Source: Roseibacillus sp.
GTDB taxonomy: Bacteria > Verrucomicrobiota > Verrucomicrobiia > Verrucomicrobiales > Akkermansiaceae
Length of the DNA: 64,000 nt
Assembly: GCA_051251855.1 (NCBI GenBank)
Contig: JBPOGI010000003.1
Location: 480,001 to 544,000, forward strand
Direction: 5' to 3'
In this document: positions 29,563-46,997 of the stretch, in pieces
How the letters are laid out: the number at the start of each line of letters is the position of its first letter
Position numbering within the stretch: the stretch's first letter is position 1
The notes under the pieces: generated by a model
The model's input: only the letters and a program-made list of their open reading frames with translations
Database searches by the model: none
Told to the model about the DNA's origin: nothing
Made by a program: the position numbers and the translations under genes

Positions 29563-30441
29563 GTGATCCGAGTGAACGGTGAGCTCGTTAATCCGAATCT
29601 GTTTGAGGAGGCTTTCTCTCGCATCAAGTCGGAGGCGGAGCTTCGCACGCAGGTTTCTTGTTGTGAGCGAGATGATGAATTTAGCAAAGAGGCGGAAGAA
29701 GAGGTCATTGATTCCATTCTGATTGCGCAGGAAGCGGAGAAGAATCATCAGAACTTAGATGAGGGCGAGGTCACTGCGGCCCTCGAAGAGATGATCAAGC
29801 TCTATCGCGAGCATGGGGCTTCATGGGAGATGTTGGAAGCTGAGCGCGACAACTTGCGCGAAGAGGTGATGGCGAACTTACGCATGGAGAGGTTCATGGG
29901 AGAGCATCTTCCGGTGGTCACGGCGCCCAGCCAAGAGGAGTTAGCGAGCTACTATGAATCTCGTAGAAAAGAGTATCGTTCATTGCCGGAGGCGCATTGT
30001 TTGCACCTAATTCGAATGATTGACGGGCATGACGATCAGCGTGCCTTGCTGGAAGAAATGACGGAGCAGCGGAATCGCGCTTTGGCGGGAGAGGACTTTG
30101 CGGAGTTGGCCAAGACGGCGACCGAGAAGTCGAGCAAAGATATCGATCTAGGTTGGGTTCCGTTGGACCGGCCGACGAATCCCTTTGAGACTATTCTTTT
30201 CTCGATGCAGGTCGGGGAGATTTCGCCGGTGATTAGCTACGAGCATGCTCTTCATTTGGTAAAGGTGACCGAGCGGCGAGGGGGGGAAGCGCCGGCTTTG
30301 GAAGAGGTGGCTGAAGAACTCAGCAATCGCTATGTGTTGGAGAAGAGGCAGGCGGCTTTGCGGGTGCTGGCGGAAAAGTTGCGCGAGACCGCTACGATTG
30401 AGCGAGTAGATTTCGAAGCCGGCGATTCGGAGAAGGATTGA
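29563..30441 (+). CDS. Parvulin (PpiC-type) peptidylprolyl isomerase with SurA-like N-terminal domain
   Basis: HCLHL, EDFAELAK, DLGW, GEISPVI..LHLVKV; AAGGAGGT upstream of the GTG. Confidence 0.8.
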   Translation: MIRVNGELVNPNLFEEAFSRIKSEAELRTQVSCCERDDEFSKEAEEEVIDSILIAQEAEKNHQNLDEGEVTAALEEMIKLYREHGASWEMLEAERDNLREEVMANLRMERFMGEHLPVVTAPSQEELASYYESRRKEYRSLPEAHCLHLIRMIDGHDDQRALLEEMTEQRNRALAGEDFAELAKTATEKSSKDIDLGWVPLDRPTNPFETILFSMQVGEISPVISYEHALHLVKVTERRGGEAPALEEVAEELSNRYVLEKRQAALRVLAEKLRETATIERVDFEAGDSEKD

Positions 30442-32029: not shown

Positions 32030-32076
32030 GCGGGATTATTTGAACAGGAGGTAAGGAGGACGAGGCTGGGTGTACG

Positions 32077-32158
32077 GACTAGTGTGATTTTCAACGCAGA
32101 GTCGCAGAGGACGCGGAGTGAACGCGGAGGACGGACTGATGTGTTTTTTTGAGATTTG
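32077..32158 (+). repeat. CGCAGAG-unit repeat, solo copy A
   Basis: GACTAGT..TTCAACGCAGAGTCGCAGAGGACGCGGAGTGAACGCGGAGGACGGAC..GTGTTTTTTTGAG; aligns with 37310-37389 and with the GxxExxY inverted repeats. Confidence 0.9.
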
Positions 32159-32275
32159 AACCACCGCTCTGCGGGGCACGGCAGAAGGCAACAAAGGAAG
32201 CGAAGTCGGGGTTGGATGTTTATTTTTGAACAGAAGGTGAAGAGAGAAAGGAACTTCGATTCGTAGCTTTGGTTT

Positions 32276-37309: not shown

Positions 37310-37389
37310 GACTAGTATGGGTTCACCGCAGAGTCGCAGAGGTCGCAGAGTGAACACAGAGGACGGACCGGTGTGTTTTTTGAGTTTTG
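37310..37389 (+). repeat. CGCAGAG-unit repeat, solo copy B
   Basis: GACTAGT..TTCACCGCAGAGTCGCAGAGGTCGCAGAGTGAACACAGAGGACGGAC..GTGTTTTTTGAG; direct repeat of copy A. Confidence 0.9.
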
Positions 37390-38451: not shown

Positions 38452-38532
38452 CGTAGCCGAGTTGGTGACAACTCGGGCGGGGTAGATATTCTTGGGGTCA
38501 ACTCTGCCAGAATTGTCACCAATTCAGCTACG
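38452..38532. repeat. GTAG-type REP doublet (REPIN-like) between convergent genes
   Basis: CGTAGCCGAGTTGGTGACAACTCGGG and an inverted copy (reverse complement CGTAGCTGAATTGGTGACAATTCTGG); each unit is internally palindromic. Confidence 0.8.
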
Positions 38533-43054: not shown

Positions 43055-45562
43055 CTAGCCAAAGAGGTCCATCTGGGGATTGTTGGCTTGGGGGAGGTTG
43101 TCGTGGGTGTCGCGGGTGTTTTTGGCCTTGGGGTTGGTGGGCTTGTTTGATTTTTCGGGCTTTTGGGAGTTGAGCTCGAGGTGGCTGAGGATTTCGGTGG
43201 CGCGGGCGATGATGGGTTGAGGGAGGCCGGCGAGGCGGGCGACTTGGATACCGTAGCTTTTGTCGGCGGGGCCGGGTTGGATTTTGCGGAGGAAGATGAT
43301 GTCTTCGTTCCACTCGCGGACGGCGACGTTGTGGTTCTCGACCGCTTCTTTGCTGGCGGCGAGGTCACAGAGCTCGTGGTAGTGGGTGGCGAAGAGGGTG
43401 CGCGATTGGGTGCTGTCGTGCAGGTGTTCGGCGACGGCCCAGGCGATGGAGAGTCCGTCGAAGGTGGCGGTGCCGCGGCCGATTTCGTCGAGGATGACGA
43501 GGGAGTCGGCGGTGGCGTTGTTGACGATGAGGGCGGTCTCGTTCATCTCGACCATGAAGGTGGACTGTCCCTGCGAGAGGTCGTCGGAGGCGCCGACGCG
43601 GCAGAAGATTTTGTCGACGAGGCCGATGGTGGCTTTTTCGGCGGGGACGTAGGCTCCGATTTGGGCCATGAGGGTGACGAGGGCGACTTGGCGGATGTAG
43701 GTGGACTTTCCGGCCATGTTGGGGCCGGTGAGGATGTGGAGACGGCCGGTCTCGGGGTCCATGGAGGTGTCGTTGGGAACGAATTTTTCTTCGATGAGAG
43801 TTTGTTCGAGGACGGGGTGGCGCGCGTTGGTGAGGTGGAGGCTGCGGTCGGTGGTGAGGTGGGGGCGGGTGTGTTGGTGGAGTTGCGCAGTCTCGGCAAA
43901 GGAAAGGAGGACGTCGAGGGTGGCGAGGGCGTCGGCGGTTTGCTGCAGAGGGGCGAGGTGCTCGCAGACTTGTTTGCGCAGGTGGACGAAGAGGTCGTAT
44001 TCGAGGGCTTTGGCGCGCTCGTCGGAGCCGAGGATCTTCTGCTCCATCTCCTTGAGGGCGGGGGTGATGTAGCGCTCGGCGTTGGCCATGGTTTGCTTGC
44101 GCTGGTAGTCCTCGGGGACTTTGTCGACTTTGCCTTTCGAGACTTCGAGAAAGTAGCCGAAGACATTGTTGAACTTGATTTTGAGGTTGTCGATGCCGGT
44201 GCGTCTACGTTCGGTTTCTTGCAGTTCGGCGAGCCAGTTCTTTCCTTCGCGGGAGGCGGAGCGAAGTTCGTCGAGCTCGGCGGAGTAGCCGTCGCGAATG
44301 AGGTTTCCGTCTTTGGGTGAGGCCGGTGGTTCGTCTCCGAGGGCGTTGGCGAGGAGTTCGGTGAGTTCGGGGAACTCTTGGATTTGGGTTTTGAGATGGG
44401 AAATTTGAGAGGTGTCTTTTCCTAAGGCCTCGAGGTCTTCGCGAAGAGCTGGGACGCGTTCGAGGGAGGTGGCGAGGGTTTTGAGATCGCGGGGGTTGCC
44501 GCTGCCTTGGGAGAGACGGCCGGTGGTGCGCTCGATGTCGCGAATGTCTTTGAGGGATTCGCGGAGCTTGGAGAGGAGGTAGGGTTCGGCGAGCAGTTGT
44601 TCGACGGTGTCGAGTCTGTCGTTGAGGGTGTCGAGGTCGCGCAGGGGATGGAGGACCCAGTCACGGAGCTTGCGCGCGCCCATGGGGGTGGCGGTGCGGT
44701 CGAGGGTGGCGAGAAGGGTGTGCTGGGTGCCGGAGCGGGATTGCACGAGGTCGAGATTGAGCTGGGAGGCGGTGTCGATGAGGACGTGCTCGCTGTGGTC
44801 GCGCACGGCGAGGGTGGAGAGGTGTTCGCAGTTGCGGCGGAGTTGGTGGACGAGGTAGTGGAGGGCGGCTCCACCGGCGCAGATCGCGGAGGCCATGTCT
44901 GCGCACCCAAAGCCTTTGAGGGACTGCACCTTGAAGTGGTCGAGGAGGGTGTGTTGAGCGGTCTCGTTGAGGAATGCGTAGGCGTCGTAGGGGAAGGAGC
45001 CAGGGAGTTGACCGAGTTGTTGCAGCTGGTCGTCGGGGATGAGGAGTTCGGAGGGAGCGAGGCGGTTGATTTCGTCGCGGAGGAGGTCGAGGTCGGTGAA
45101 TTCGGCGAGGGAGAATTCGCCGGTGGAGTGGTCGGCGCAGGCGAGTCCGTAGCGGAGTTTTTTTCCGGAACCAAATTGGCAGGCGGCGGCGAGGTAGTTG
45201 TGCTTGGTGTCGTCGAGGAGGGTGAGGTCGTCGATGGTGGAGGCTGAGATGATCTGCGCGATTTCGCGTTCGACGAGTTGGCCGGGTTTGGGTTCGGAAG
45301 TTTGTTCGGCTAGGGCGACGCGTTTGCCGGCTTTGACGAGCTTGGCGATGTACCCGGTGGCGGCGTGATGGGGGACTCCGGCCATGGGGATGTCGTGGCG
45401 CTTGGTGAGGGAGATGTTGAGGATGGGTGCGGCGATTTTAGCGTCCTCGAAGAACATTTCGTAAAAGTCACCCAAGCGATACAGGAGTAGGATGTCGTCC
45501 GGGAGGGAGCGACGGATGGCTTGGTACTGGGCCATCATTGGGGTGAGTTTTTTTTCGGGCAT
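43055..45562 (-). CDS. mutS: DNA mismatch repair protein MutS
   Basis: GDFYEMF, TGPNMAGKST, DEIGRGT, SYGIQVA. Confidence 0.98.
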   Translation of the reverse strand: MPEKKLTPMMAQYQAIRRSLPDDILLLYRLGDFYEMFFEDAKIAAPILNISLTKRHDIPMAGVPHHAATGYIAKLVKAGKRVALAEQTSEPKPGQLVEREIAQIISASTIDDLTLLDDTKHNYLAAACQFGSGKKLRYGLACADHSTGEFSLAEFTDLDLLRDEINRLAPSELLIPDDQLQQLGQLPGSFPYDAYAFLNETAQHTLLDHFKVQSLKGFGCADMASAICAGGAALHYLVHQLRRNCEHLSTLAVRDHSEHVLIDTASQLNLDLVQSRSGTQHTLLATLDRTATPMGARKLRDWVLHPLRDLDTLNDRLDTVEQLLAEPYLLSKLRESLKDIRDIERTTGRLSQGSGNPRDLKTLATSLERVPALREDLEALGKDTSQISHLKTQIQEFPELTELLANALGDEPPASPKDGNLIRDGYSAELDELRSASREGKNWLAELQETERRRTGIDNLKIKFNNVFGYFLEVSKGKVDKVPEDYQRKQTMANAERYITPALKEMEQKILGSDERAKALEYDLFVHLRKQVCEHLAPLQQTADALATLDVLLSFAETAQLHQHTRPHLTTDRSLHLTNARHPVLEQTLIEEKFVPNDTSMDPETGRLHILTGPNMAGKSTYIRQVALVTLMAQIGAYVPAEKATIGLVDKIFCRVGASDDLSQGQSTFMVEMNETALIVNNATADSLVILDEIGRGTATFDGLSIAWAVAEHLHDSTQSRTLFATHYHELCDLAASKEAVENHNVAVREWNEDIIFLRKIQPGPADKSYGIQVARLAGLPQPIIARATEILSHLELNSQKPEKSNKPTNPKAKNTRDTHDNLPQANNPQMDLFG

Positions 45563-45572
45563 CTTAAGGTGG

Positions 45573-45626
45573 TTCGTTCAACGCAGAGTCGCAGAGAGCA
45601 CGGAGTTACGCAGAGTTTTTTTTGAG
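45573..45626 (+). repeat. Left inverted repeat of the GxxExxY element (copy C)
   Basis: TTCGTTCAACGCAGAGTCGCAGAGA (45573-45597) is the exact reverse complement of 46071-46095; imperfect extension to ~45626. Confidence 0.92.
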
Positions 45627-45662
45627 TTTTTTGAGTCGGGTTTGGATGACTTTTTTGAGTGT

Positions 45663-46040
45663 TTACTCGGGGAGGTTGTTGGCGAGGCGGCGGATGCCGT
45701 CTTTGAGGAGAGGGACGTTAAAGTTAATGAGGAGTCCGAGTGGCTTTTTACTGAGCTTGAGATATGTGAGAATCTGGGCGGTGTGAATGGGGTCGATTTT
45801 TTCTACGGATTTAAGTTCGAGAATGATTTTGTCTTCCACGAGGAGGTCGATTCGATAGGCGTCTTTGACGATGAGGCCTTTGAATTGAATGGGGAGGATG
45901 ACTTGTCGCTCAACTTTTAGGCCTCGCTGTGTGAGTTCATGGAAAAGGCAAGCTTCGTAGGTTTGCTCCAAGAGTCCGGGCCCAAGTTCTCGGTGAACTT
46001 CGATTGCGGCTCCAATAATTATCTGACTCAATTCATTCAT
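45663..46040 (-). CDS. GxxExxY protein (PD-(D/E)XK nuclease-like)
   Basis: IGAAIEVHRELGPGLLEQTY; RIDLLVEDKIILELKS; AQILTYLK..GLLINF. Confidence 0.93.
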   Translation of the reverse strand: MNELSQIIIGAAIEVHRELGPGLLEQTYEACLFHELTQRGLKVERQVILPIQFKGLIVKDAYRIDLLVEDKIILELKSVEKIDPIHTAQILTYLKLSKKPLGLLINFNVPLLKDGIRRLANNLPE

Positions 46041-46042
46041 AT

Positions 46043-46095
46043 CTCAAACAATCTCTGCGAAACTCTGTAATCTCTGCGACTCTGCGTTGAACGAA
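46043..46095 (-). repeat. Right inverted repeat of the GxxExxY element (copy D)
   Basis: Minus strand reads TTCGTTCAACGCAGAGTCGCAGAGATTACAGAGTTTCGCAGAGATTGTTTGAG, then AT and the ATG of the GxxExxY gene. Confidence 0.92.
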
Positions 46096-46100
46096 TTACA

Positions 46101-46997
46101 TTAATACTCCCGATCGAGGAGATGATGGGCGATTTGGTTGAGATGGGTGGCGGCTTGGCCGAATGATTCTAGGGCGGCGAGGGAGAGGTCGGTGAGGCGT
46201 TTGGCTTCGGCTTTGGATTGTTCGAGTCCGAGGATGGCGGGGTAGGTGGATTTGTTGACCGCTTCGTCTTTGCCAGCGGTTTTGCCGAGGGTGGCGGTGT
46301 CGGCGGTGACGTCGAGGATGTCGTCGATGACTTGGAAGGCGAGGCCGAGGTTGTAGCCAAAAGTTGTGAGTGCGCTGAGTTGTTCGGTGCTGGCGTTGGC
46401 GGTCATGGCGCCGAGGCGGATGGAGGTGGTGAGGAGGGCTGCGGTTTTGCGCTCGTGGATGGCGATGAGTTCGTCGTGGCTGAGCAGGGTGTCTTCGCCT
46501 TCGCCTTCGAGGTCGAGGATTTGGCCGCCGATGAGTTGCTTGGATCCGGCGCAGACGGCGAATTCGGTGAGGTAGGATCCGACAGGGAAGCGTTCGGCAG
46601 GTGGGGTGTGGGCGATGAAGTGGAATGCTTCCGCTTGGAGGGCGTCACCAGCGAGGACGGCGATGGCTTCTCCAAAGACCTTATGGGATGTGGGGCGCCC
46701 TCGGCGGAGGTCGTCATCGTCCATGGCTGGGAGATCGTCGTGGACGAGAGAATAGGTGTGAAGAAGTTCGGTGGCGCAGGCTGGGAAAAGAGCGCTGGTT
46801 TCGTCGCCGCCACAGGCTTCGGCGGAGGCGAGGGTGAGGATGGGGCGGAGTCGTTTACCGCCTGCGAAGACGGAGTAGCGCATGGCCTCGTGGATTTTGG
46901 CGGGCTTTTCGAGGTCTGAGGGGAGGTGGGTGTCGAGGTGGGCGTCGATGAGGTCGCGTTTTTGGGCGAGATAGCTTTTGAGGTCTTCGCTTGGCAT
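46101..46997 (-). CDS. ispA: Polyprenyl (farnesyl/geranylgeranyl) diphosphate synthase
   Basis: GGKRLRP, SLVHDDLPAMDDDDLRRG, AFQVIDDILD. Confidence 0.93.
   Translation of the reverse strand: MPSEDLKSYLAQKRDLIDAHLDTHLPSDLEKPAKIHEAMRYSVFAGGKRLRPILTLASAEACGGDETSALFPACATELLHTYSLVHDDLPAMDDDDLRRGRPTSHKVFGEAIAVLAGDALQAEAFHFIAHTPPAERFPVGSYLTEFAVCAGSKQLIGGQILDLEGEGEDTLLSHDELIAIHERKTAALLTTSIRLGAMTANASTEQLSALTTFGYNLGLAFQVIDDILDVTADTATLGKTAGKDEAVNKSTYPAILGLEQSKAEAKRLTDLSLAALESFGQAATHLNQIAHHLLDREY

Follow-up and report, generated by a model that had tools for sequence, protein, structure and literature searches.

A small predicted nuclease gene between inverted repeat arms at the ispA-mutS junction of Roseibacillus sp.: an apparently undescribed and widespread cassette

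We analyzed a window of 64,000 nucleotides from Roseibacillus sp. (contig JBPOGI010000003.1, positions 480,001 to 544,000, forward strand); the source genome, called G000 here, comprises 4.96 Mb in 13 contigs. Named GxxExxY loci that cluster with loci of the same family on the protein trees suggest a Verrucomicrobiota host. A small gene of the GxxExxY family lies in this window between an ispA-type synthase gene and mutS1 (Table 1). All three genes are on the minus strand; because the cassette is co-oriented with the host operon, it is probably transcribed by read-through. The gene is bracketed by two arms, the cores of which form a perfect 25-bp inverted repeat. No further exact pairing occurs at either end of this core, and profile hits extend the arms imperfectly to about 52 bp. 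A repeat search returned the same arm pair as the longest inverted repeat within the window (68 nt, 82%). Each arm is built from a T-rich head and four CGCAGAG-like units with a spacing of 8-10 nt; one unit of the arm on the ATG side reads TACAGAG. The ispA stop lies 5 nt outside the upstream arm, the TTTGAG end of this arm is 2 nt 5' of the GxxExxY ATG, and 10 nt separate the outer end of the downstream arm from the mutS ATG. No Rfam match was found between positions 30000 and 48000.

An earlier sequence-only reading of this DNA had placed the perfect repeat at exactly these coordinates, had estimated its imperfect extension at about 53 bp and had given both the 2-nt and the 10-nt distance correctly. 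It had also described four C(G/A)C(A/G)GAG-like units per arm; the number is right, but the TACAGAG unit does not follow that pattern. Its two solo arms, reported at 32077 and 37310, are both real, with starts about 10 nt away from these positions. The TTTTTGAG units next to the downstream arm look like the arm unit of a four-helix-bundle cassette found elsewhere in G000, and the run, judged by this resemblance, is possibly a relic of another element.

Table 1. The ispA-mutS1 cassette, its neighbors and related solo arms. Positions refer to the window.
Feature	Position	Strand	Remarks
Downstream host gene, mutS1	43055..45562	-	
Downstream arm, pyrimidine-rich on gene strand	45573..45624	+	perfect core 45573-45597, exact reverse complement of 46071-46095
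Run of TTTTTGAG units, between GxxExxY stop and downstream arm	45616..45659	+	
GxxExxY gene, 125 aa, PD-(D/E)XK fold (predicted)	45663..46040	-	TIGR04256, PF13366; E25, D65, E75-x-K77, Q89-xxx-Y93 intact
Upstream arm, purine-rich on gene strand	46045..46095	-	perfect core 46071-46095
Upstream host gene, ispA-type polyprenyl (FPP-type) diphosphate synthase	46101..46997	-	
Solo arm, CGCAGAG word	32088..32137	+	purine strand = G-rich strand
Solo arm, CGCAGAG word, between divergent genes	37321..37367	+	purine strand = G-rich strand
Kinase-regulator spacer, 246 nt, same-orientation arm stack	32030..32275	+	two AACAG-type, one CGCAGAG, one AACCACCGC-type

The open reading frame 46040-45663 scored 157 bits against TIGR04256 (curated cut-off 35) and 153 bits against PF13366 (cut-off 22). 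These were the only matches; no transposase domain, DDE or other recognised, is present in the protein, as the first reading had claimed. The structure model of the 125-aa protein has a pLDDT of 96.6. The best Foldseek rows for this model were Cas4 and lambda exonuclease (4r5q, 4ic1, 6m9k) with E values of 1.3e-3 to 3e-3, and none fell under 0.001. A wide fold search gave Z scores of 8.4-7.9, none higher, to restriction-fold proteins and Cas4, and the top rows were mostly PD-(D/E)XK nucleases. Each of the residues E25, D65, E75, K77, Q89 and Y93 is kept in 90-99% of the alignment rows; the PD-(D/E)XK-like residues that had been recognized by eye (D65, E75, K77) are among them. We take the combination of E, D, ExK and QxxxY to be the motif set of the RecB family. 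Conserved cysteines for an Fe-S cluster are absent from the alignment. According to the model, the protein has the core fold and the catalytic D and E-x-K of the PD-(D/E)XK superfamily. We infer that it is a RecB/Cas4-type nuclease, a prediction in which likeness of fold alone does not show function.

Further searches with the protein found no solved structure related by sequence, no usable match in the ESM Atlas outside PF13366 and no match in PHROGs. No PADLOC match improved on E 0.005, and the matches obtained were to Cas4 models. The dN/dS ratio was 0.05-0.06 in four pairs of GxxExxY genes and 0.24 in one, and four pairs were saturated; all pairs are of other members, the ispA-mutS copy being in none. 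As judged from these ratios, the gene family is shown to be under purifying selection.

G000 contains three GxxExxY genes and each of them is bracketed by inverted arms. The CGCAGAG word occurs in two of these cassettes, at the ispA-mutS junction and between the halves of metH; the third has a different word. We screened 1864 genes of 50-300 aa (own gene calls) for inverted flanks with a score of at least 34. Only seven genes passed, including all three GxxExxY genes, which argues that the arms are not there by chance. The others are one gene for a TIGR02436 four-helix-bundle protein and three Y1/RAYT-like genes named from sequence motifs only (G000:C1:1784248-1784853, C6:445613-446065 and C10:61842-62441). 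The TIGR02436 gene (G000:C7:393814-394179, minus strand) sits in an operon gap between near-perfect inverted arms of CTCAAAAA-type units. This cassette has the same arm-gene-arm layout as GxxExxY without a nuclease fold, so the mover could also be a host or third-party enzyme. The genome-wide count of the repeat, proposed in the sequence-only reading together with its enrichment at GxxExxY genes, was made with an arm profile that gave 50 hits, 39 of which were retained at E 0.05 or better. All 39 arms are intergenic or at gene ends. Eight belong to four inverted pairs, two with a gene and two gene-less (G000:C8:198058-198256 and C10:60081-60240, the latter adjoining an arm of another word), and 31 are solos.

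Next to this genome we examined 152 distinct loci, 147 of them with full flanks, drawn from relatives and from the best 80 of 510 GTDB hits, a choice by which close homologues are over-represented. Inverted arms (score ≥26) were found at 121 of the 147 loci versus 8 of 147 in the reversed control. The arms vary together with the protein, a relation that had also been named as worth checking: over 105 loci, protein identity is correlated with arm-word similarity (Mantel rho 0.37 against a null maximum of 0.13). On the large protein tree, which was built with a quick method only, arms of one class fall together (18 label changes versus 34.8 after shuffling). Compared in this way, the arm words are shown to travel with the protein clade across phyla; co-inheritance alone could yield this covariation. 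In the source genus the arm pattern is present in six of nine genomes and missing from the three without the gene. Across the order, the gene is present in 32 of the 33 genomes that show the arm pattern and in 110 of 151 overall, numbers in which kin are not independent, with 30 of the 41 gene-negative genomes coming from one genus.

The family is spread over many phyla, with up to 10 copies per genome in the order. The arms tend to lie close to the neighboring genes: at 62 of 101 loci the upstream arm has a same-strand stop no more than 30 nt away (opposite strand 21), and at 61 of 101 the downstream arm has an ATG at no more than this distance (opposite strand 7). Among 72,556 plasmid records only eight carry GxxExxY, six of them larger than 400 kb, and a single query found none in IMG/VR and phage records. 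One match, at G125:C23:147249-147572, lies within an open frame of 1859 codons and is perhaps an in-frame or fused copy.

A survey with ispA matched 40 of 41 genomes, and 30 loci were read. mutS is the next gene after ispA in five of the 30, all in the source genus. Empty sites at this junction, which the sequence-only reading had suggested looking for, exist in G001, G007 and G008 with spacers of 146, 51 and about 50 nt, respectively. The junction in G002 is differently filled: it contains a different GxxExxY gene with different arms, and the proteins are 53-55% identical in a context of flanks with 82/88%. A diverged copy, with 89 differences in 631 nt, spans the ispA-mutS junction in another contig set. 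Hence a gene fixed at this locus in relatives that lack the repeats is not what we found; the junction varies and the arms track the gene.

The second CGCAGAG cassette of G000 allows a similar comparison. metH is split at the junction in all seven readable congeners (of eight loci); insertion into an intact metH is thus ruled out, and the cassette uses a pre-existing gap. This gap contains a cassette of type A in G000 and G004, type B in G005 and type C in G002, and no gene in G006 and G007. When G001 and G004 are compared at metH, the six bases after the stop are identical and are followed by unlike arms, which means that the swap begins at the arm boundary. In G001 the type B GxxExxY gene (L184) is internally deleted, with an intact upstream and a decaying downstream arm. 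A 30-nt spacer in G006 (L185) resembles, by eye, the outer end of a downstream arm and is possibly a deletion relic.

Many of the 118 arm-positive loci have both flanking genes alike and unlike cassettes. At hisS-aspS (this and similar gene names were assigned by reading translations) the flanks are 78/90% and the resident GxxExxY proteins 34% identical. The residents of metH, hisS-aspS, nuoK-L and nuoD-E are non-monophyletic, with at least two changes each on the starred branches of a 46-row tree, and monophyly of the metH residents is rejected (AU p=0.028). At ispA-mutS the starred branches do not demand two origins, although L007 groups at 100/99 with a locus from another site. The residents of a further junction (L003, L045, L049, L056 and L082, from two families) are monophyletic with a support of 100/98, which indicates that some cassettes stay put for long periods. 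The arm word at this junction differs between lineages and is self-complementary in each.

The absence of an obvious target-site duplication, claimed for the ispA-mutS cassette, extends to the family: the longest shared flank word averaged 3.39 versus 3.32 in the control over 106 loci, with ends taken from arm alignments, so that very short duplications could be missed. The comparison of junctions shows, at the level of sequence, that gain, loss and replacement affect the cassette as a whole. We consider it very probable on these grounds that GxxExxY and its arms constitute a mobile unit.

The solo arms show a strong strand polarity. The GC skew of G000 is near 0.2, and the purine strand of 30 of the 31 solos is on the G-rich strand as determined in a 40-kb window; the remaining one sits in a local G-rich patch, and all 31 are therefore on the locally G-rich strand. 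As a rule, it is the leading strand that is richer in G. Genes have no matching bias, since 1664 of 3707 (45%) are on this strand. Base composition was rejected as a cause of the polarity (log10 likelihood ratio -0.03), as was the idea that solos are decayed hairpins, given that the 31 solos have no partner-arm signal (mean z 0.23, none above 2.5). Single arms form no hairpin either when four of them are folded on both strands (z -0.5 to +1.4). When the arms of six words in G000 are pooled, 64 versus 10 have the same polarity, and types without a matching cassette in this genome share it. Other, unrelated repeats of G000 lean to the G-rich strand less strongly (14:8, 18:6 and 23:8). The polarity recurs in G012 (22 of 23 solos; 30 of 33 matches used) and in G133, a genome with weak skew (12 of 12; from the first 30 of 88 matches, which give 26 distinct loci). 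It is absent from G029 (9 of 22 solos, all 28 matches). In the first 45 kb of contig C7 of G000 the skew reverses locally, perhaps through inversions or misassembly.

Arms also accumulate. Ten junctions of G000 contain more than one arm word, and the solo at 32088 is part of an arm stack in the kinase-regulator gap. In G005 the orthologous kinase gene (44% identity) overlaps the regulator in an ATGA stop/start, versus the 246-nt gap in G000. Many solos, for example at 32131-32150 and 37363-37385 of the window, are accompanied by a GGACGGACYG..TG tail and a GGACGGGGTTGG spacer that are not found in cassette arms; this suggests that solos were copied from one another.

The arrangement resembles several known systems, which we describe here from parts of the cited reports. 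Ssn is a small nuclease that is flanked by its own repeat; its cuts in single-stranded DNA fall near this repeat and on one strand only (PMC11893778). The GxxExxY cassette shares with Ssn and its NTS repeat the small single-domain nuclease gene between oriented cognate repeats (121 of 147 loci), the dispersed copies of the repeat and the repeat variants that go with protein variants. It differs in that Ssn is a GIY-YIG enzyme, whereas GxxExxY is PD-(D/E)XK according to Pfam, NCBIfam and fold; NTS has a hairpin core, whereas single GxxExxY arms do not fold; and the GxxExxY arms are arrays of tandem units whose cassettes replace each other at operon junctions. With REPIN/RAYT systems (10.1101/2021.07.10.451892; PMC3733652) it has in common a family of extragenic repeats linked to a single gene family, inverted doublets without a gene, and a gene that is largely off plasmids. 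The same sources describe TIRtrons, i.e. genes between terminal inverted repeats. RAYT and TIRYT proteins are HUH tyrosine transposases according to these accounts, whereas GxxExxY has a PD-(D/E)XK fold and no HUH domain. RAYTs are there described as single-copy, non-jumping and vertically inherited; GxxExxY, in contrast, has three copies in G000 and is non-monophyletic at four junctions and vertical at one. REPs are palindromes, from which the GxxExxY arms differ because single arms do not fold; they contain no palindrome, and most GxxExxY repeats in G000 are solos.

Intervening sequences of 23S rRNA (PMC4990558), as far as part of that report covers them, also have an ORF inside an insert with pairable ends, and a four-helix-bundle (S23p-like) family shows the same layout in G000. 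The GxxExxY cassette, however, lies between the protein genes ispA and mutS without an Rfam match and has a nuclease as cargo; excision by RNase III belongs to the comparison with these sequences, and there is no sign of it for the GxxExxY cassette. Cas4, lambda exonuclease and RecB share the PD-(D/E)XK core; GxxExxY differs in its 125 aa, no conserved Fe-S cysteines and no CRISPR context at ispA-mutS. IS elements and MITEs resemble the cassette in the gene between terminal inverted repeats and in gene-less derivatives, but the cassette has no transposase domain and no target-site duplication signal. It is, as compared with parts of these sources, neither an rRNA intervening sequence nor a classical IS.

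From these likenesses we infer a pair of the Ssn/NTS or RAYT/REP kind with a different nuclease fold, which would act on single-stranded DNA. The cassette occupies stop-to-start gaps of housekeeping operons. In the mechanism that we propose, GxxExxY would recognize its arm word on just one strand while the DNA is transiently single-stranded, like Ssn with NTS; likely substrates would be incoming DNA or, at the fork, the template of the lagging strand. The cut would fall near the T-rich outer end of the arm, after which the cassette would be copied, deleted or exchanged by host repair. Leftover arms would serve as landing sites, by which the same junctions would be reused and arm stacks would arise, and action on a single strand would account for the one orientation in which solos persist or originate. 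We see an even chance that the unit of arm, nuclease gene and inverted arm at ispA-mutS belongs to a widespread, slow-moving kind that acts in this manner. By analogy, the protein probably acts on its own arms; that it does so on single-stranded DNA linked to the replication fork is plausible, with the balance slightly against it. In its boldest form the proposal would make GxxExxY a large family of sequence- and strand-specific ssDNA nucleases with clade-specific linear words, which drive a transposase-free, fork-tied mobility in which cassettes displace one another and leave polar arm stacks; this tentative extension we regard as somewhat unlikely. Observations that speak against the proposed mechanism include the lack of polarity in G029, the similar lean of other repeats in the strongly skewed G000 and the like layout around a four-helix-bundle gene without a nuclease fold.

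The last of these observations also fits the view that the arms alone are the mobile unit, moved by host repair, recombination or another enzyme, and that GxxExxY is a passenger without action on them. The three Y1/RAYT-like genes in G000 (by motif) and the polarity of arm types without a matching cassette (64 versus 10) also agree with such passive cargo. It is difficult to reconcile with arm words that track the protein clade across phyla, with arms that are nearly confined to gene-bearing genomes and with catalytic residues kept in 90-99% of rows; we judge it unlikely. The sequence-only reading had proposed an autonomous/non-autonomous pair analogous to RAYT-REP. The empty and refilled sites, the covariation and the co-occurrence bear out that a gene and repeat pair comes and goes. 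GxxExxY is a candidate mover of the solos, but the four-helix-bundle gene, without a nuclease, has a like layout. A domesticated, Ssn-like restriction or defence nuclease could instead cut arm-bearing incoming ssDNA and tune gene exchange, with turnover as a by-product of homologous replacement between relatives. SsnA is described as acting in this way in Neisseria in part of the report on it (PMC11893778), and the long-term vertical inheritance at one junction, the purifying selection and the rarity on plasmids and absence from the phage collections searched are compatible with it. Plain recombination in the flanks would not predict a replacement that starts at the arm boundary and keeps the adjacent bases, and the PADLOC matches were the weak Cas4 ones; we consider this explanation quite improbable.

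We give a similarly low probability to an intervening sequence at the RNA level: arms paired within the operon mRNA would loop the ORF out or excise it and bring the ispA stop to the mutS start. On the mRNA strand the two arms do fold together as a single long stem (z -8.1), as is expected of any inverted repeat; the positions of stops and ATGs close to the arms (62 and 61 of 101 loci) and the arms that remain complementary at the vertically inherited site, even though their words change, would also suit this explanation. However, mismatches between the arms on the mRNA strand comprise 174 A.C versus 97 G.U without any wobble excess, and in G-rich loci alone they are 19 versus 20. Pairing in mRNA furthermore leaves the solos and their replication polarity unexplained, and a cut of the mRNA without ligation would presumably not help coupling. 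The loop-out alternative raised in the sequence-only reading thus lacks support, although an mRNA stem may be a side function of the cassette arms. Selection for pairing on the antisense strand was rejected, because the 174:97 excess stems from C-rich loci and vanishes in G-rich ones; the excess is therefore treated as mutational. A joint that skips the cassette was found in none of four contig sets, which are DNA or untyped and as such prove nothing on RNA.

PF13366 is listed, in the part of the source available, as a family of unknown function with multiple transfers (PMC3424549). We found no published description of a cassette of GxxExxY and arms in the open literature searched, from which subscription journals were largely, and supplements wholly, absent. 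The nuclease-repeat cassette is real, widespread and apparently undescribed in that literature. Each GxxExxY clade is now paired with a specific candidate substrate and the strand is predicted to matter, so that a simple oligo assay can test the proposal. If the proposal is true, it would add a third enzyme fold to the nuclease-repeat pairs beside HUH and GIY-YIG, account for a class of intergenic repeats and provide small nucleases whose sequence words differ.

Repeats of other types occur in the vicinity of the arms. REP-like palindromes are often located in the same intergenic regions of G000 as solo GxxExxY arms. The window also contains, at 38452-38532 between convergent genes, a 35-bp inverted repeat with an 11-nt loop, which is probably a REP-type doublet or a terminator.
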